DNA of 64,000 nt, taken from assembly GCF_024298765.1 (NCBI RefSeq), contig NZ_CP101210.1; one strand, written 5' to 3'. Below the pieces are notes generated by a model. The model saw only the letters and a program-made list of their open reading frames with translations, had not been told where the DNA came from and made no database searches. Positions 1,409 to 64,000 of the stretch are shown here, piece by piece. The translations under genes and the position numbers were made by a program. The first letter of the stretch is position 1. Each line of letters begins with the position of its first letter. Origin of the DNA: Escherichia coli (GTDB lineage Bacteria; Pseudomonadota; Gammaproteobacteria; Enterobacterales; Enterobacteriaceae).

Positions 1409-2508
1409 ATGAAATTTACCGTAGAACGTGAGCATTTATTAAAACCGCTACAACAGGTGAGCGGTCCGTTAGGTGGTCGTCCTACGCTACCGATTCTCGG
1501 TAATCTGCTGTTACAGGTTGCTGACGGTACGTTGTCGCTGACCGGTACTGATCTCGAGATGGAAATGGTGGCACGCGTTGCGCTGGTTCAGCCGCACGAA
1601 CCAGGGGCGACGACCGTTCCGGCGCGCAAATTCTTTGATATCTGCCGTGGTCTGCCTGAAGGCGCGGAAATTGCCGTGCAGCTGGAAGGTGAGCGGATGC
1701 TGGTGCGCTCCGGGCGTAGCCGTTTTTCGCTGTCTACCCTGCCAGCGGCAGATTTCCCGAACCTCGATGACTGGCAGAGCGAAGTCGAATTTACCCTGCC
1801 GCAGGCGACGATGAAGCGTCTGATTGAAGCGACCCAGTTTTCTATGGCACATCAGGACGTTCGCTATTACTTAAACGGTATGCTGTTTGAAACCGAAGGT
1901 GAAGAACTGCGCACCGTGGCGACCGACGGCCACCGTCTGGCGGTCTGTTCAATGCCAATTGGTCAATCTTTGCCAAGCCATTCGGTGATCGTGCCGCGTA
2001 AAGGCGTGATTGAACTGATGCGTATGCTCGACGGCGGCGACAATCCGCTGCGCGTGCAGATTGGCAGCAACAACATTCGCGCCCACGTTGGCGACTTTAT
2101 CTTCACCTCGAAACTGGTGGATGGTCGCTTCCCGGATTACCGTCGCGTTCTGCCGAAGAACCCGGACAAGCATCTGGAAGCTGGCTGTGATCTGCTCAAG
2201 CAGGCGTTTGCCCGTGCGGCAATTCTCTCTAACGAGAAATTCCGCGGCGTGCGTCTGTATGTCAGCGAAAACCAGCTGAAAATCACCGCCAACAACCCAG
2301 AACAGGAAGAAGCGGAAGAGATCCTCGACGTTACCTATAGCGGTGCGGAGATGGAAATCGGCTTCAACGTCAGCTATGTGCTGGATGTTCTGAACGCACT
2401 GAAATGCGAAAACGTCCGCATGATGCTGACCGATTCGGTTTCCAGCGTGCAGATTGAAGATGCGGCCAGCCAGAGCGCGGCTTATGTTGTCATGCCAATG
2501 AGACTGTA

Positions 2509-2509
<1 letters not shown>
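1409..2509 (+). CDS. dnaN: DNA polymerase III beta subunit (sliding clamp)
   Basis: 366-aa ORF starting [17 protein letters not shown], ending ...VVMPMRL; begins 4 bp after dnaA stop. Confidence 0.97.
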
Positions 2510-6025
<3,516 letters not shown>

Positions 6026-48587: not shown

Positions 48588-49268
48588 TCACAGGTTAAAG
48601 GTGTTGATAAGTTTATGGATGAAAGAGAAATGTGGCAGGGCGGAGATAAAACGCTCTTCAGCGACCAGACTGTGGATGTGGCCTCTCCGTTCAAACCGTT
48701 CTGATGTCAGGCTGACTGATTTGATATCTGCCAGAGGAAAGACCTGCAGTTTTCCCTTCTGTAACGCGATCAGATACCAGCTACCGCTGTAATAAATGAG
48801 CCGGCAGGGCTCCAGTGACGGATACCATCGCTCAGTCATCAGAGAGATGTGGATACACTGTCTTATTGCCAGGATGAGTTGCGAGAAACACTCGGGGAAC
48901 GTTGCAGTGATATCCGGCGCCGGTAGCCAGATAAGGCAGGGAGAGGGCTCCTGGTTGTCGGTAAGACAGGTTATCAGTCGTCCGTTCCGGAGCGGAAGTA
49001 TCCGTGCGATCCCGGTATTCTGTATAAAAGAAAGCATTTCAGGGATCGCACCTGGGCTGCTCTGTCGTCTGAGGCTGTACCTGCCATTTCTGTACTCTAA
49101 ATCCAGGTGAACCAGACGCTGATGAAAATCGCGCTGTAAAGTACGTTCTGTAACGCCAAATTCATCTGACAGTGTTTTTAGTGACAGAGATTCTCCGGCC
49201 ATCAGTCGGCTGATAATGAGTGATAAGCGAACCGCCAGGCGATCATGCCGGGAACGATTATCAGACAT
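48588..49268 (-). CDS. HTH plus WYL-domain transcriptional regulator (YfjR-like)
   Basis: 226 aa; N-terminal DeoR-type HTH (KTLSDEFGVTERTLQRD); C-terminal WYL-like region. Confidence 0.65.
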   Translation of the reverse strand: MSDNRSRHDRLAVRLSLIISRLMAGESLSLKTLSDEFGVTERTLQRDFHQRLVHLDLEYRNGRYSLRRQSSPGAIPEMLSFIQNTGIARILPLRNGRLITCLTDNQEPSPCLIWLPAPDITATFPECFSQLILAIRQCIHISLMTERWYPSLEPCRLIYYSGSWYLIALQKGKLQVFPLADIKSVSLTSERFERRGHIHSLVAEERFISALPHFSFIHKLINTFNL

Positions 49269-49470
49269 AGATGTGCACTCCGTAAGAAAACATCTTTTAT
49301 TTCATGATGTTATTATGCATCATGATGTTGAAAGGATGTGTCGCATCCGGATAATCAGGAATAAAATGCAGCAGAAAAAATATTCTTTTAATTATCTGAT
49401 TTTTAAGCATGATTTCATAAAAAGAAGAATGCTCGTTAATCCAGCGACACATCCTGTCGGCGTGAGTGTG

Positions 49471-50355
49471 TCAGAACAGACGCTCCCACAGTGTGATCAG
49501 CAGGTGGATAATGCGGTCCCGGGCTTTACGCAGAAGCTGTAACATCCAGGCCGGAAAACTGAACCGGGCAACGGCGTCGTCAAAACTTTTCCCGATGGCA
49601 TCACCAAAAGTCTGTTGTGCGTGTTTCCGGGCCTGTTCAGAGCGGTTTTCCCCCCTGATATGTGAATAAACTGCGCTGGTTGCCTGTGGTGGCAGCGCGT
49701 GGATCATCAGTGACACCAGCGCTGGAAGGTTCCAGCCTGCAGGTGCGGCTACAGGGAGTACCGGAAATGATGAAGGGAACAGGGTGGCCACCCGGGCTGT
49801 TACTGTCGCCAGTGAGAGTTCCTGGTGACGGGACGGGCATTTTTCTGTGGCATTCCATTCTTCAGCAGGAAACATGCGATCGGCATGGCTGAGAACAAAC
49901 AGAAAGCGCGAGGGATCTGCGCCCTCATTCAGTAAAAACTGATGCATGGCAATATCGGCAGCATACGCACGTTCATCACTCCGCAGGATCCAGATAATCA
50001 GATCCAGTTCCGGCAGTAACTGACGATAAAGCGCTCGGTATTCCTGATCATGCTGCGGTGTTTCACCAATGCCGGGCAGATCGACCAGCGTCATTCTGCG
50101 TTCACCGAGCTGCAGGGTAAGACGATGAGCCTGGCGGGTGCAGCCGTTCAGGGGATGCGTGGCGCAGATACGGGACTGAAAAATGGCATTACACAGGCTG
50201 CTCTTGCCGGTGCCGGATTTACCCATAATGCCAATCACGGGCTCGTAATGAATAACACCGTGGAGATGTTCAAGGATTTTCTGGCGTATTTCTTCAGGAA
50301 GAAACGTCAGATATGATTTCACTTGCGCGGAGAGGGAAGAATTGCTGAATGGCAT
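49471..50355 (-). CDS. GTPase (YfjP/YkfA/YeeP family)
   Basis: 294 aa; P-loop GKSGTGKSS, DLPG switch, ribosome-associated GTPase-like. Confidence 0.8.
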   Translation of the reverse strand: MPFSNSSLSAQVKSYLTFLPEEIRQKILEHLHGVIHYEPVIGIMGKSGTGKSSLCNAIFQSRICATHPLNGCTRQAHRLTLQLGERRMTLVDLPGIGETPQHDQEYRALYRQLLPELDLIIWILRSDERAYAADIAMHQFLLNEGADPSRFLFVLSHADRMFPAEEWNATEKCPSRHQELSLATVTARVATLFPSSFPVLPVAAPAGWNLPALVSLMIHALPPQATSAVYSHIRGENRSEQARKHAQQTFGDAIGKSFDDAVARFSFPAWMLQLLRKARDRIIHLLITLWERLF

Positions 50356-50455
50356 ACCGGTATCCTGTTGATTTCACTGAACCGGATCACACTAATCCGG
50401 TTTATCATTCAGGTAATATGGGTGTGAAAATTTTTCCATTGACGGGAAGAAGAGT

Positions 50456-51679
50456 ATGGCTAAAAACAAAGGTATTTGTCGGAATAAAAAATGCAGTAAT
50501 CCTGTTTCAGAATTTGATGAGGCAAATGCCTTAAGGTTATGCGATGATCATTATAAGCTATGGAAGCGAAATAAAGAGAATCGTCGGGTCAGGAATATTT
50601 GTCGTATAATCAGTAAATATGACAAAAGTCTGGACCGGGAGATATTTTATGGAGTAAGAGATGCTGCAAAAAATAAAACGGGAAAGAGAATTATTGAGGA
50701 CGCAAAAATATTACATCAATGCCGTGCCTCAAAGCAAGTAAGAAAAAGTTTTCACAAGGGTGTGCTTCGGTCACGGGAATGGCTTAATACACAGGAGTTA
50801 CTGAGCAGAAAACATATATCTGTTACAGGTGAACTATTTAAATTTTACATAAAAGATATTATCAGATTATATTGCTATAAGTTTCTCTACAGCAGAGAAT
50901 ATCTTAATGAAAACGCATACAAAAAACGATATCAGAGTGATATTCACCCCAGAAAAGTTAATGTTCCGATACTGCAACTTGAAGTTGCATGGATAAATAA
51001 TAATTGCCGTTCAAGTGATTCAAGCACTGATATTATTATCCTTCCGAGGATGATAAGAAGAATGGTTGTATTTAATTATACGAAGATAAATAAACAATTA
51101 GAGAAATTGTTAGGGGGGATAGCACGAAAACAAACCTCAGAAAGGAATAAAGGCGGTCTCTATACCAGAATAAAAAAAGAAAGTGACTTTCTTTCTATGG
51201 ATAGATTTATGGTGGAAATAGAAAATATCATAAGGCCTGAAAGGTTTCCGACATCAATTTATCCAGTCTTTTCACATTCATTTATTGAACGAGAGCTTCC
51301 GCTACTGAATCTTGCTCGATCACAGTATAAAAGAGCAATAAGTAAAAAAGTGGCGAATTCAATTTTTTATACTTTGCAAAAAACTAACGTAGCATTATGG
51401 CTACATCTTGAAATGTTTGCTCTGGTGGCATTCATTAAACTGTATACAGGAAAAGGTTTTGAATTCATAAAAAACATGTGTGCATTTATCGATTATAATA
51501 ATGGGATAATAAAATCCACACATGAAGAACTACTGGGTGAAATTAAGCATAACATTCAGGTTAATTTGAAGGTGAACCCTGATAATTTTCCTGAGCTAAT
51601 AAATATATACAATTCATGTTTTAGTAAAAATATATTTTTATATGATATTAATGATGGTAATTTTAAATGGTGTTCATGA
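50456..51679 (+). CDS. hypothetical protein, Lys-rich with N-terminal Cys/His cluster (candidate novel defense/abortive-infection gene)
   Basis: 407-aa ORF; purine-rich RBS; very AT-rich codon usage; C8-x4-C13...C29-x2-H32; divergent from GTPase gene. Confidence 0.6.
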   Translation: MAKNKGICRNKKCSNPVSEFDEANALRLCDDHYKLWKRNKENRRVRNICRIISKYDKSLDREIFYGVRDAAKNKTGKRIIEDAKILHQCRASKQVRKSFHKGVLRSREWLNTQELLSRKHISVTGELFKFYIKDIIRLYCYKFLYSREYLNENAYKKRYQSDIHPRKVNVPILQLEVAWINNNCRSSDSSTDIIILPRMIRRMVVFNYTKINKQLEKLLGGIARKQTSERNKGGLYTRIKKESDFLSMDRFMVEIENIIRPERFPTSIYPVFSHSFIERELPLLNLARSQYKRAISKKVANSIFYTLQKTNVALWLHLEMFALVAFIKLYTGKGFEFIKNMCAFIDYNNGIIKSTHEELLGEIKHNIQVNLKVNPDNFPELINIYNSCFSKNIFLYDINDGNFKWCS

Positions 51680-51978
51680 TTCTAAAATAGCAAATTCATA
51701 TTGCATATTAATTATCAACAAAAAACACATAATAAAATTTCAATAAGTTACCTGCTAATGGTGCTGATGATCCGCCAGTTTAGTATGGTTATATGATTTG
51801 ATGGTTAATGCTTACAGATAATCACACTTTCTTATGAATAGTATAAATGAGCATGCCATAGTCGTTTGTTCAGAGATAAAATTTACTGAATGAGCTTATG
51901 TTGTGGTTATCTGTACTTACCGGATACGACGACTTATATTCCTCACATTATATGGCTTAACTTTTCTGGGGTAAAGCG

Positions 51979-52044
51979 ATGGAGTTACAGACGCTGATTA
52001 CGATGGTTTACTGTCTCGTTATCACGGGATTTCTGCTGTACTGA
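51979..52044 (+). CDS. putative 21-aa hydrophobic mini-protein (speculative)
   Basis: ORF MELQTLITMVYCLVITGFLLY preceded by GGGGTAAAGCG; could be chance in AT-rich DNA. Confidence 0.2.
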   Translation: MELQTLITMVYCLVITGFLLY

Positions 52045-52184
52045 ATACGTGAACAGGAAAATAACTCCAGAGTAAATCTGCTCTGTTTTTAGGACAGAAA
52101 ACTCCATGCTGGCTGTAAAAGTGAAAAATTAACACCCAGTATGTATGGAAGTCTGAAGATGTTGAGAATGTCGGTATGATACTA

Positions 52185-52330
52185 TATACACGTATTTTAC
52201 TAAGTATTTTTACTAAGCATTTCAGTAAGTGTTATACACGTATTTTCTACTAAGTGTTTTACCAGACATACACGTATTTTCATAAACACTTCTACAAGTG
52301 TTTTCGTTAAGCATTGCTATACACATCCAG
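52185..52330. repeat. tandem imperfect direct repeats (ATACACGTATTTT ... ACTAAGTnTTTT)
   Basis: tatacacgtatttt at 52185 and 52233, catacacgtatttt at 52267, gctatacacatcc at 52317; each followed by actaagt/acaagt then a T-run. Confidence 0.5.
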
Positions 52331-52842
52331 TTTAGTAAATCTTTACGTTAACTAAATCAGTTTAATGCTGCTGTAAAACCTTTCTGTTTAAGCAATCAAT
52401 CTGCTATTCGATTTTACTGATGTTACGTTTAACCTTTCCTTAGATTTCGAGTTTCGACGTTAGCTTGAGAAAAGTATCTTTACGTAAAGCCCAGTGAATT
52501 AACTCAAATCCGATTGAGGTAACCTGATGCGATTTACTGTGAGTTTGCGATAACACTGTTAAATGGCTTATGGATGATTTTGTAACGGCGAGATTGATAA
52601 GGTGATTAACTGGCCCTGGTGTTTTTTCTCAGCGTAAGGTGATTATCTTCATCATAAGGCTCTTTTCAGAAAAAGTGTGATGATTGGTTGTGGTGTTTTG
52701 ATTCAGATGAGGATCTGCCAATGATTATGATGTATTGTAAGAAATAACGCCTTCAGAATGTTGGAGCATGCACTTACACAAACTGTTTTTCTAAAATTAA
52801 GGGAACAGTTTAAAGAGTATAAACTGTTCATCTTCTTCAGGA

Positions 52843-53373
52843 TTAAGCTACATTGTTGTTATGACTGACAGGATTGTTTTCTTCCCCTGACTCTGGGCTT
52901 AACAGTCCCTGGCGTTGTAGATATTCACTGACTGACATTCCAGAACTACGGATCCTGTCAGAGATTTTACGAAATTGATCCTTCCATTCTGCAGGTAATT
53001 TCTTAATTTGTCTGACTTTACAGGCTACACTGTACGGGGTTCGCCCTAGTTTCTCTGCCAGCCAGAAAAGGTGTTTACCAATTTCATCGTCCGGTACATC
53101 CTCCAGAACATCTCGCAATAAACTCTCGTCTGCCTCATTCCATGCCACACCAGCATTTGGGAAACGAGGATCGATCTCTCTTTCCTTCTTCTCCTTCTTA
53201 CTTTGCTCTTTTCGGGATGATACAGATACGACAGAACGTTCTTTTACCGCTGTAATTGCCATAACTGCATTGAGCAGAGATCTGCGCTCCACATCGTTCA
53301 GCATTTTTCCTTCACAGATCAAATCATTCAGGATGTCAATGACTAGATTCAGACTTTCTTCTGTTAGCTTCAT
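52843..53373 (-). CDS. hypothetical protein with putative HTH
   Basis: 176-aa ORF; AAGG RBS 8 nt upstream; charged KE-rich linker; HTH-like LAEKLGRTPYSVACKVRQIKK. Confidence 0.55.
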   Translation of the reverse strand: MKLTEESLNLVIDILNDLICEGKMLNDVERRSLLNAVMAITAVKERSVVSVSSRKEQSKKEKKEREIDPRFPNAGVAWNEADESLLRDVLEDVPDDEIGKHLFWLAEKLGRTPYSVACKVRQIKKLPAEWKDQFRKISDRIRSSGMSVSEYLQRQGLLSPESGEENNPVSHNNNVA

Positions 53374-53987
53374 ATTTCAGACCTTGAAGTATGTAGATAA
53401 TCAGCACAATTACTAATGTGATAAATATCAGAAGATAATTTACAGGTAAACCGGAAAATACATCTGAAGAATAAAGGCCTCAGCTTAACGTTTCAGCCAG
53501 TTTGTGAGCTGATTGAGGTACGGCGATGACATTAACGGGAATTACTCCCCTATAGCTCTGAGCTTATTTTTCACCCTGGCAACATATGGTGGCTACTGCG
53601 CATGGTTTTGGAGTAGATATCTTACTACTCGTAGAATTGTGCTTACTGGTCAGGCCAGCGCACAGGCATTCCGTGCAATCAATAGAACACTGGTTTTTTA
53701 GTCTTCCGTTACCCATCAGGATGTTAGTGCAGATTCCGGTGTATTCGATCAGTTGTTCGGCGAATCAGCGATCGATCACGATGCGATTTCGTATGTTAGG
53801 GATGCTGGTATGATTACTCGCTGAAAAATAATGTGAAAAGGCAGTTTTTCTTTAGACATTTAGCTCATTCATGCTGTTGTTTTACGTTTTGCTGTCGTGT
53901 GCAGGATTATCTTTTCGTTACGGGACGATTCATTCCGTTTTAATCAGGAGCTATTGGCGTTGCTCATTGGTGGGATGCCGTAAAGTT

Positions 53988-54035
53988 TTACCGCGGCGAT
54001 TAATGATGTGAAGTCAATCCAAATCAACGGAGATC
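53988..54035. repeat. conserved leader element (copy 1) shared with 62702-62744
   Basis: ttaccgcggcgattaatgatgtgaagtcaatccaaatcaacggagatc versus ttaccgccttgcttaatgatgtgaactgaagtcaacggagatc. Confidence 0.55.
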
Positions 54036-54042
54036 TCTCATC

Positions 54043-54774
54043 ATGAATCAACCAATACACAATGATTACTGGTTATCCCGTTTTGAAAGTATTCTCAACA
54101 GTGCCCTGGTGCAACACCGTGCCGTCTCGTTAATCCGGGTGGATTTACGTTTCCCTGAGCATATGCCTGTCACCATCATGGATCCCGATCCGGATTCAGC
54201 GGTGATTTCTCGTTTTTTCGAATCCCTGAAAGCCAAAATTCAGGCTTACCAGCGGAAAAAACGACGTACCAACAAGCGTGTGCGTGCAACCACCCTGCAT
54301 TATTTCTGGTGTCGAGAGTTTGGCAAGGAAAAAGGCAGGAAACATTATCACGTGATATTACTGCTCAACAAAGATACCTGGTGCTCGCCAGGGGATTTCA
54401 CCGTTCCTTCTTCGCTGGCGACGCTGATCCAACTGGCATGGTGTAGCGCTCTGCATCTTGAGCCCTGGCAGGGTAATGGACTGGTTCATTTTTCCAGGCG
54501 GACGCCTTTCCGTAAACCGGCATCATCTGATGCTCGCCCTTCTTCCGATGATACGCCTTTGTCGGGTGGATGTTCTGAAACCAGGAAGGCTTCAGACAAA
54601 AAGCCGGGTGAAGCCGCTGTTCTCTGGATCAAGCGTGGTGATGTGGAAGCGATGCAGAAAGCCATGGAGAGAGCCCGTTATCTCGTGAAGTATGAGACGA
54701 AGCAGCATGACGGTTCTGGTCAACGTAATTATGGTTGCAGCCGTGGAGCGGGGCGTCTACTGGATGGCAGGTGA
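54043..54774 (+). CDS. inovirus Gp2-like replication-associated protein (YagK/YfjJ family)
   Basis: 243 aa; HYHVILLL motif region; family assignment from memory. Confidence 0.65.
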   Translation: MNQPIHNDYWLSRFESILNSALVQHRAVSLIRVDLRFPEHMPVTIMDPDPDSAVISRFFESLKAKIQAYQRKKRRTNKRVRATTLHYFWCREFGKEKGRKHYHVILLLNKDTWCSPGDFTVPSSLATLIQLAWCSALHLEPWQGNGLVHFSRRTPFRKPASSDARPSSDDTPLSGGCSETRKASDKKPGEAAVLWIKRGDVEAMQKAMERARYLVKYETKQHDGSGQRNYGCSRGAGRLLDGR

Positions 54775-54884
54775 ACCCTGTAAAACGGCATCCGGTGCCA
54801 GAGTATATGTCACAGTAAGGTCGTTGGCTGACGCCCTTAGCTCGTTTTCTGAAAAAGTTTTTCTGAAGTAATGTGGATTTGCCC

Positions 54885-55790
54885 CTATATTTCCAGACAT
54901 CTGTTATCACTTAACCCATTACAAGCCCGCTGCCGCAGATATTCCCGTGGCGAGCGATAACCCAGCGCACTATGCGGATGCCATTCGTTATAATGCTCGA
55001 ACGCCTCTGCAAGGTTCTTTGCTGCCGTTAACCCGTCTGGTTTGGGCATGATACTGATGTAGTCACGCTTTATCGTTTTCACGAAGCTCTCTGCGATTCC
55101 GTTACTCTCCGGACTCCGCACCGCCGTGTTCTTCGGTTCAAGTCCCAACATCCGGGCGAACTGGCGTGTTTCATTAGCCCGGTAGCATGAACCATTATCC
55201 GTCAGCCACTCCACTGGAGACGACGGAAGATCGTTGCCGAAGCGGCGTTCCACCGCTCCCAGCATGACGTCCTGTACTGTTTCACTGTTGAAGCCGCCGG
55301 TAGTGACCGCCCAGTGCAGTGCCTCACGATCACAGCAGTCCAGCGCGAACGTGACACGCAGTCTCTCTCCGTTATCACAGCAGAACTCGAACCCGTCAGA
55401 GCACCATCGCTGATTGCTTTCTTTCACGGCCACTCTGCCTGTATGTGCCCGTTTCGATGGCGGTACAGCAGGTTTTCGCTCAAGCAACAGCGCATTCTGG
55501 CGCATGATCCGGTAAACACGTTTGGCATTGATCGCAGGCATACCATCAAGTTCGGCCTGTCTGCGAAGCAGCACCCATACCCGACGATAACCATATGTGG
55601 GCAGCTCTCCGATAACATGGTGTATACGGAGAAGCACATCCGTATCATCAGTGTGACGGCTGCGGCGACCATCTTTCCAGTCATCGGTTCGTCTGAGAAT
55701 GACGTGCAACTGCGCACGCGACACCCGGAGACAACGGCTGACTAAGCTTACTCCCCATCCCCGGGCAATAAGGGCGCGTGCGCTATCCAC
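54885..55790 (-). CDS. insD: IS2 transposase InsD (OrfB)
   Basis: 301 aa [34 protein letters not shown]...; DDE integrase core. Confidence 0.92.
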
Positions 55791-62909: not shown

Positions 62910-63482
62910 ATGAATGCTATCCCTTATTTCGACTATAGCCTGGCCCCCTTCTGGCCATCTTATCAGAACAAAATCATCGGCGTTCTCAACCGTGTGTTGC
63001 GCGAGCAGTCCTGCTCCCGAATACGGCGGATCCTGCTTCGTCTGCCGGGGGAACATGGCAACATCTTCAGCGACAGAAAAACCTGGTTCGGTATGGCCTT
63101 TATCGAAACCGTCAGTGCGCTGATGAATGCAACACCCGGACGTGACCTCTGCTGGCTCCTGACACGTCATCCTGAAAAACCGGAATACCACGTGGTGCTG
63201 TGCGTCAGACAGGAGTATTTCGACGGCCCTGAACTGGATCGGCTGATTCTGGATGCCTGGAGCAACGTACTGGGCTTCGCATCACCGGGTGAAGCAGCAC
63301 CGTACCAGAAGCAGATCACCCGGGATGTGGTGCTGGACAGTTGTTCACCGGACTGCGAAGAGAGACTCAAAGAGCTGATATGGGCGTTCAGTGATTTCGC
63401 CCGCGATCGTCGTGGTGTGCGCGATCCGGAAGCCCGTTACCTCGCCGGTAATCCCTGGTATCCCGTAGCAGGCCAGCTCTGA
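62910..63482 (+). CDS. hypothetical protein, possible third Gp2-like paralogue
   Basis: 190 aa from MNAIPYFDYS; GGAG RBS; EYHVVLCVRQEYF motif. Confidence 0.5.
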   Translation: MNAIPYFDYSLAPFWPSYQNKIIGVLNRVLREQSCSRIRRILLRLPGEHGNIFSDRKTWFGMAFIETVSALMNATPGRDLCWLLTRHPEKPEYHVVLCVRQEYFDGPELDRLILDAWSNVLGFASPGEAAPYQKQITRDVVLDSCSPDCEERLKELIWAFSDFARDRRGVRDPEARYLAGNPWYPVAGQL

Positions 63483-63550
63483 AAGCTCAGCTCAGCAGAT
63501 TCACCCGCATTTGCCCAACATTCATAAATCTCACAGAGGACATTCTGACC

Positions 63551-63787
63551 ATGTTGACCTCAATGACAGGTCACGACAGCGTATTGCTGCGTGCCGACGA
63601 TCCCCTGATCGACATGAACTACATCACCAGCTTCACTGGTATGACCGACAAATGGTTTTACAAGCTGATCAGTGAAGGCCATTTCCCTAAACCCATCAAA
63701 CTGGGGCGCAGCAGCCGCTGGTACAAAAGTGAAGTGGAGCAGTGGATGCAGCATCGAATCGAGGCATCACGAGGGGCAGCAGCATGA
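63551..63787 (+). CDS. AlpA-family prophage regulatory protein (excisionase-like HTH)
   Basis: 78 aa; ...ITSFTGMTDKWFYKLISEGHFPKPIKLGRSSRWYKSEVEQWM resembles AlpA/Xis-type HTH. Confidence 0.7.
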   Translation: MLTSMTGHDSVLLRADDPLIDMNYITSFTGMTDKWFYKLISEGHFPKPIKLGRSSRWYKSEVEQWMQHRIEASRGAAA

Positions 63788-64000
63788 AACGTGTTGTAAT
63801 GCCGGTACGCTGGCAATGTGCAAAATACCAGCGTTGGTATTGTGGAAATCAGCCCTGTCCCTGGTGCTGGCGACATTTACGTTCATCTTCTTGCAGACAT
63901 TCTCCAGTCAGCCAGCAGGTTGTAGCTCTTCCTGACTGATTCGTCATTCCATTCTTATTGATTATAACTGGCATTACACCGGTGCTGGCGTGCTTTCCTG

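Follow-up and report, generated by a model that had tools for sequence, protein, structure and literature searches.

Which kind of element occupies the variable interval beside the YfjP-like GTPase gene of islands related to CP4-57, and is it a single defence or addiction module? In the Escherichia coli window treated here (64,000 nucleotides of contig NZ_CP101210.1, the whole stretch of DNA that was analysed), this interval of 3.7 kb at 50356-54042 lies between the GTPase gene and a gene of the inovirus Gp2 family (YagK/YfjJ type). It contains an open reading frame (ORF) for a protein of 407 aa, a convergent ORF for a protein of 176 aa and an ORF-free gap of 1163 bp between them, all located as in a preliminary description of the locus (Table 1). 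Comparison with other islands shows that the interval is not a single unit. It consists of four separately inherited pieces. Their arrangement and content are read here as a mosaic region for control and replication at one end of a large, CP4-57-related composite integrative island, a reading given about an even chance of being correct.

Composition of the interval

Boundaries were drawn by comparing the slot with the variant islands of further E. coli genomes, and frequencies were counted among 5426 complete E. coli genomes. Homology changes sharply at 50430, 52041, 52712 and 53866. In islands with other cassettes, homology ends at 50430, which is the left recombination boundary, and the segment 50431-52040 was found only in islands of the '407 type'. 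The leader of the Gp2-like gene would be the fourth independently recombining piece. The pieces also differ in their distribution: 1866 genomes have the shared non-coding block, 975 have the 407 cassette (967 of them 80% or more of its length), 676 have the 176 cassette and 542 have 80% or more of the whole slot. Different frequencies and separate boundaries indicate that the 407-aa and 176-aa ORFs are no obligate pair. The DNA is AT-rich, as had been described, with a GC content of 0.33-0.35 in the interval versus 0.52 in the island genes leftward.

Table 1. Features of the interval and its two anchor genes, with positions in the window
Feature	Position	Strand	Remark
YfjP-like GTPase gene	49471-50355	-	left anchor of the slot, context
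Divergent leader between GTPase gene and cassette	50356-50430		94-99% identical in every variant island
407-aa protein gene	50456-51679	+	intact ORF; 'hypothetical protein' in RefSeq
Non-coding 3' tail	51680-52040		travels with the 407 cassette
Shared non-coding backbone block	52041-52712		in every variant island examined
Terminator-like hairpin and T run	52068-52085	+	start of the block; T run in all copies
Near-invariant stretch TTGAGAATGTCGGTATGATACTATATAC	52162-52190	+	identical in most of eight copies
Iteron-like array	52183-52330	+	ATACAC(G)TATTTT boxes at 52186, 52234, 52268 and 52319, interleaved with ACTAAGTGTT-type boxes
176 cassette, 1153 bp	52713-53865		seen in the window type only; takes the place of about 290 bp of conserved backbone leader
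Hairpin terminator, 10 bp	52803-52829	-	14 nt past the stop codon of the 176-aa gene
176-aa acidic protein gene	52843-53373	-	convergent with the 407-aa gene; 'hypothetical protein' in RefSeq
Leader directly upstream of the Gp2-like gene	53866-54042	+	conserved; bounds the replacement on the right
Inovirus Gp2 family (YagK/YfjJ-type) gene	54043-54774	+	right anchor, context

The DNA adjoining the GTPase gene is exchanged among islands that are otherwise 93-99% identical, and at least four alternative contents were seen. The site of the 407-aa gene is occupied by a gene for a 376-aa protein in O157 strain 86-24, by a 316/310-aa gene together with a convergent 262/269-aa gene, or by a 345-aa gene on the opposite strand. 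The 376-aa protein is a clear member of the 407-aa family (hhalign 99.9%), and the 316-aa protein probably belongs to it as well, in a form shortened at the N-terminus (84%, E 7e-6); the 345-aa and 262-aa proteins are unrelated to the family. Neither Pfam nor PADLOC gave a match for the 316/310-aa, 262/269-aa and 345-aa proteins. Alternative cassettes lie at 3106-4841, 3107-4845 and 2279-3316 of the comparison loci L015, L016 and L017, respectively. A faint signal of ribbon-helix-helix and RepB-type regulators was noted in the C-terminus of the 262-aa protein.

The gene order in CP4-57 of E. coli K-12 is yfjJ, abpB, abpA, yfjM, rnlA, rnlB, yfjP. AbpAB adjoins yfjJ in this island (PMC10732053). 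The K-12 interval resembles that of the window in its position between a Gp2/YfjJ-type gene and a YfjP-type GTPase gene and in a content that varies among islands. The earlier designation as a cargo slot is appropriate for the swapped content beside the GTPase gene and for abpAB, yfjM and rnlAB in K-12, but not for one cargo unit in the window. The equation with the K-12 slot is likewise correct in part. The anchors match, but the orientation of the Gp2-type gene does not: yfjJ is directed towards the slot, and the Gp2-like gene of the window is inverted and directed away from it, so that the slot includes the upstream leader of this gene. The two slots share no DNA similarity, the contents of the window slot match no known defence family, and neither DNA similarity nor a family match links them to RnlA or RnlB. 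Comparison of the slot across E. coli islands revealed the expected variation in content, but most of the ORF-free DNA turned out to be the shared backbone block.

The 407-aa protein and its family

The 407-aa protein is basic (K 10.3%, R 7.9%, pI 9.8) and was rightly called lysine-rich. It comprises an N-terminal CCCH zinc ribbon, a beta-beta-alpha core (residues 175-218) and a helical C-terminal domain. The zinc-ribbon residues C8, C13, C29 and H32 are invariant in eight close relatives. In a deep alignment, CCCH is present in nearly all full-length members, with one Cys-to-Ser exception, and is missing in truncated or outlier sequences. The sequence LE.CH.YPNS.GG.N...N.I.P..INR is carried by 15 of the 35 aligned members; it is taken to be a standard HNH motif that lacks the second Cys pair. 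Only these intact-motif members gave weak matches to HNH_4 and HNH_5 (E 0.01-0.04) and a likewise weak match to the HNH region of Cas9d (E 0.02-0.03). No HNH model of Pfam was significant, and the window protein showed no meaningful match in Pfam, NCBIfam, PADLOC or PHROGs. A profile search connects it to the intact-motif members.

The window protein shares several properties with HNH endonucleases. It is homologous to bearers of (E/D).(C/S)H..P....GG.N....N.I.P..(I/L)N(R/K), has an N-terminal Cys/His zinc-binding motif and is predicted to form the strand-strand-helix core. In an AlphaFold2 model based on the deep alignment (predicted local distance difference test 83, predicted template modelling score 0.73), strand 175-179, strand 193-197 and helix 198-218 fall exactly on the degenerate HNH stretch. 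In contrast to HNH endonucleases, the protein has W178 in place of the catalytic His, Asp and Arg in place of the two Asn, and no GG turn. The same holds for its branch of the family: of the four key positions, the first is occupied by Trp, Phe or Tyr (in one member by Lys), the GG is missing, and the last two are Asp and Arg. Structure comparison revealed nothing known that is similar to the rest of the fold. Three structural relatives are named 'HNH endonuclease' in UniProt, and one of them is a 96%-identical E. coli fragment. The name 'Reverse transcriptase' of one relative in UniRef was rejected as spurious: the Pfam and NCBIfam models run on the family gave no reverse transcriptase match, this relative being covered by the Pfam scan only. 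No paper citing the window protein accessions was found in the literature. From the alignment and the predicted structure it is concluded that the 407-aa protein is probably a pseudo-nuclease, derived from a nuclease by loss of catalysis. It may still bind DNA, because the zinc ribbon, the high pI and the core have been retained. For the 407 cassette, which is divergent from the GTPase gene, it is proposed that the protein would bind DNA without cutting and would act in island regulation or DNA processing alongside AlpA and the GTPase.

The family is small and rare, an orphan family found mainly in Enterobacterales. A search of 5.8 billion clusters yielded 16 matches, of which only seven were distant (33-37% identity). 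The profile search identified 43 family matches in 1.84 billion cluster representatives, and 2 family loci were located in 100,044 species genomes. Relatives were found neither on plasmids nor in IMG/VR. Among viral collections, a single contig contained the non-coding block and none a member of the family, and the element is almost absent from IMG/VR.

Position by the island core genes is a constant property of the family. Homologues in Klebsiella michiganensis, in Citrobacter and on metagenomic contigs are divergent from a YfjP-like GTPase gene, with about 95 bp between it and their start; AlpA and then a YagK/YfjJ (Gp2-type) gene come next. More distant members lie directly after an AlpA-like gene, with an integrase, DUF3987, DUF932, a GTPase or ParM as neighbours. 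With its family in this fixed place by AlpA, GTPase or integrase in several genera, the 407-aa gene is best seen as a diversified component of the backbone at the AlpA/integrase end and not as free cargo. A contig labelled Chryseobacterium sp. 18061 (L029, CACSKA010000007.1) carries an enterobacterial-type island with a WYL regulator, a 407-like gene, AlpA and a Gp2-like gene. Its layout is the same as in an Enterobacteriaceae isolate (L028), and contamination or a mislabelled assembly is the probable cause.

Comparison of four copies within E. coli showed an intact 407-aa gene in each; judged from a ratio of nonsynonymous to synonymous substitution rates (dN/dS) of 0.31-0.35, the gene is under purifying selection, and the values of neighbouring genes are similar. 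A frameshifted remnant, an outcome for which the preliminary description had allowed, is not what these copies present. Between genera, members of the family are 33-37% identical, compared with 53-69% for the GTPase and 73-75% for DUF932, and the gene evolves fast at this level.

Rapid divergence is also expected from a different explanation, in which the 407 cassette is a single-gene or GTPase-coupled determinant of anti-phage defence or anti-defence in a hotspot, and its alleles result from an arms race. The presence of AbpAB and RnlAB between the K-12 anchors supplies a prior for defence genes collecting there. Flanks of 93-99% identity enclose cassette proteins that are about 20% identical or less, or unrelated, and the GC content of the cassette is low. 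The left arm of the island harbors antirestriction, RadC and CbtA/CbeA genes, and the C-terminus of the GTPase weakly matches LeoBC. Defence cargo is borne by the related tmRNA/tRNA islands I23, I44 and I55 of Pseudomonas, which are jumbo-phage satellites (PMC12595487). They resemble the present island in the core-gene set (integrase, AlpA, RadC, Gp2-like) and in variable cargo (PMC12595487), but belong to another genus and differ in sequence, and no helper phage is known for the present island. Against a defence function, PADLOC gave no match for the 407-aa protein, for seven further relatives (eight members in all), for the alternative cassettes or for the 176-aa protein. The sole recognisable enzymatic motif has lost its catalytic residues, and the family keeps its backbone-like place by AlpA or integrase in several genera. 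The defence explanation is considered rather unlikely.

Non-coding DNA and the 176-aa gene

The gap between the two ORFs contains no conserved ORF of at least 40 aa. Its right-hand part is the shared block of 672 bp, which was located at 2536 places in the 1866 genomes and is full-length in 1835 of them, with 73-100% identity. The block is unannotated in 39 of 40 among the records listed; the remaining record has an IS1 insertion. Related copies occur in the loci L014-L017 and L023-L027 and have short invariant stretches in common. In islands without the 176 cassette, a conserved non-coding leader of about 1.45 kb extends up to the start codon of the Gp2-like gene.

The stretch TTGAGAATGTCGGTATGATACTATATAC is readable as TGaTACTAT, a putative extended -10 promoter facing the Gp2-like gene; a promoter scan did not list it. 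Directly after this stretch begins the repeat array, in which the number of units varies between islands. The tandem repeats mentioned in the preliminary description are real: Tandem Repeats Finder reported arrays at 52185-52262, and the 13-mer ATACACGTATTTT is present in three exact copies within 95 bp, with no other exact copy in the window. The array agrees with the iterons of plasmids, phages and satellites in having at least three direct repeats of variable copy number in AT-rich DNA, upstream and in the vicinity of a putative initiator gene with HUH and tyrosine motifs. It differs in its distance from the Gp2-like gene, which amounts to about 1.9 kb in the window and, where the insertion is missing, to about 1 kb. 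The HUH/Tyr motifs and the replication-initiator PHROG matches of the neighbouring Gp2-like protein are the circumstantial reason to regard the block as a possible DNA-level control region for this gene. Its 672 bp, the first part of the shared leader, would serve as operator or origin for the adjacent HUH initiator gene.

Homologous repeats upstream of Gp2-like genes were not found in other genera. Only an unrelated tandem repeat of 21 bp was seen, between AlpA and the Gp2-like gene of a Citrobacter island (L004, 11893-11950). Repeat arrays upstream of Gp2-like genes may be a general feature. A search of the ORF-free DNA by tblastn revealed no remnant of AlpA. In the cassette tail, a perfect DnaA box TTATCCACA is present in L014 and L025 about 30 bp past the 407-aa stop codon, and the window has the mismatched TTATCAACA at about 51712.

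In a tentative and unlikely interpretation, the family adjoining AlpA and GTPase might be the specificity determinant of these islands, with alleles swapped via the conserved flanks. It might be either a pseudo-nuclease master regulator or sensor, in a role like that of the hyper-divergent Stl repressors of staphylococcal pathogenicity islands, or a new single-protein defence or anti-defence factor. The iteron block might then be the cis site for HUH Gp2-like replication or mobilisation of the excised island.

That the block encodes a structured non-coding RNA, or else a toxic small peptide together with an antisense RNA, is quite improbable. The absence of ORFs, the occurrence in a third of the E. 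coli genomes and the terminator-like hairpin at the start would suit an RNA, and a hydrophobic ORF of 21 aa at the block edge would suit a toxic peptide. This mini-ORF (51979-52044, + strand, MELQTLITMVYCLVITGFLLY), which resembles a type I toxin (Ibs-like) and had been listed as a feature before, was rejected, since its ATG and reading frame are lost in the sister copies L014 and L025. A non-coding RNA in the block was rejected as well. Rfam gave no match with E <=1 in the block or slot, and the sole match within 49000-55000 was a sub-threshold, chance match inside the Gp2-like gene. Alignment folding gave z no lower than -2.1 on either strand, with energies near zero across the repeats.

The 176-aa protein has a conserved core, DPRFPNAG.PW...HLFWLAEKLGRTPYSVACK. 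It showed no useful match in Pfam, NCBIfam, PADLOC or PHROGs and no sequence match in PDB; with the likewise unmatched 407-aa protein, the statement that the slot holds no recognisable gene is upheld for these collections. Weak similarity was obtained to phrog_323, a phage transcription-regulator family (E 7e-4 to 0.07 in four members), and to NikA-like proteins (E 0.014-0.025). Relatives, called 'DNA-binding protein' by NCBI, have 50-64% identity and occur in two settings, the edge of an integration hotspot in Klebsiella oxytoca and plasmids. They were detected on 2960 plasmid records, mostly of conjugative Klebsiella IncF plasmids, and in no phage records. The plasmid genes lie in a run of small genes including one with an Hha domain. 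The WP_004152104-type protein of Klebsiella IncF plasmids (pKpQIL/pKPN3 type) has the same core and is 50-55% identical over about 89% of the length. Its gene belongs to such an operon with the Hha-domain gene, whereas the 176-aa gene of the window is solitary, has its own terminator and is located in the island leader. These similarities weakly suggest a solitary helix-turn-helix-like DNA-binding regulator, possibly nucleoid-associated, and in the proposed scheme the protein would have a regulatory or nucleoid-associated function. Of the 676 genomes with the cassette, 665 carry it with an identity of 99% or more, and this near-identity points to recent spread, unlike the older block. The 176-aa gene is a recent single-gene insertion related to a plasmid DNA-binding protein.

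Decaying remnant DNA without current function might be expected in an island that is full of insertion sequences, with IS2 directly after the Gp2-like gene and the 176 cassette interrupting the leader. However, the 407-aa ORF is intact with a dN/dS of about 0.33, its cassette is widely retained, the 176 cassette is near-identical among its carriers and the block is full-length in most genomes that have it, so that this explanation is highly improbable. The single two-gene toxin-antitoxin or defence module of the preliminary description, for which only the joint occurrence in 542 genomes and the uncharacterised state of both genes speak, is effectively excluded by the distributions of the genes (975 versus 676 genomes), which are convergent, 1163 bp apart, in separately bounded segments, never beside each other's relatives in other genera, split between plasmid occurrence for the 176-aa relatives and none found for the 407-aa relatives, and without similarity to a known toxin or antitoxin family.

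Island setting and significance

Chromosomes of E. coli such as NZ_CP041304.1 match the window in their first 64 kb. The slot sits within a large composite island adjoining yicL, in which insertion sequences are abundant and to which ireA, hlyE, fec and pgt belong. A CP4-57-like backbone extends to the left of the slot and comprises DUF4942, CbtA/CbeA, DUF987, RadC/JAB, antirestriction, DUF932, DUF905 and a WYL-type regulator. The GTPase is 93-99.7% identical across islands with differing cassettes; its C-terminal part (residues 185-284) matches the PADLOC model LeoBC of the dynamin-like Eleos system (E 1.6e-7). The Gp2-like protein contains the HUH motif H101-Y102-H103 and the tyrosine motif RYLVKYETK, both read from the translation, and matches PHROG replication-initiator families. 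It is 84-97% identical between islands whatever cassette is present, and no co-variation of cassette type and Gp2 allele was found.

An AlpA-like helix-turn-helix protein of 77 aa was identified by tblastn at 63551-63784 (+), 93.6% identical to the AlpA-like protein of L014. RefSeq annotates an overlapping YagK/YfjJ domain protein at 63424-63990. Genes for proteins of the ProQ/FinO and H-NS families lie in the island itself, a few kb past the window (NZ_CP041304.1 65958-67771, L036 1959-3772); these proteins could act on the AT-rich leader.

Several points weigh against the reading as a control and replication end. Every function given for the 407-aa family is a predicted one, and it is motifs that suggest DNA binding for both the 407-aa and the 176-aa protein. 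A pattern of swapped cassettes with divergent alleles is also typical of defence and anti-defence loci, and one island type holds an unrelated gene in place of the 407 cassette. Neither a consensus site for DnaA or IHF nor a nick-site hairpin was identified in the block, in which it differs from known iteron arrays. Copies of the block diverge by up to 27%, so that signs of constraint are limited to short stretches. The putative promoter of the window is separated from the Gp2-like gene by the 176 cassette with its terminator, and the island is broken by insertion sequences; the region may consequently no longer operate as a unit.

Islands of this kind bear virulence and fitness genes (here ireA, hlyE and fec) and occur in about a third of the complete E. 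coli genomes. The analysis separates true cargo from backbone at a much-cited variable site. It defines a protein family that had no annotation, derived from HNH proteins by loss of the catalytic residues and travelling with AlpA and integrase, and it points to an unannotated, repeat-bearing non-coding element in 1866 genomes. Should its role lie in defence, the family would represent a new defence factor. Should it control excision, replication or helper sensing, it would provide a handle on the movement of these 'cryptic' islands.

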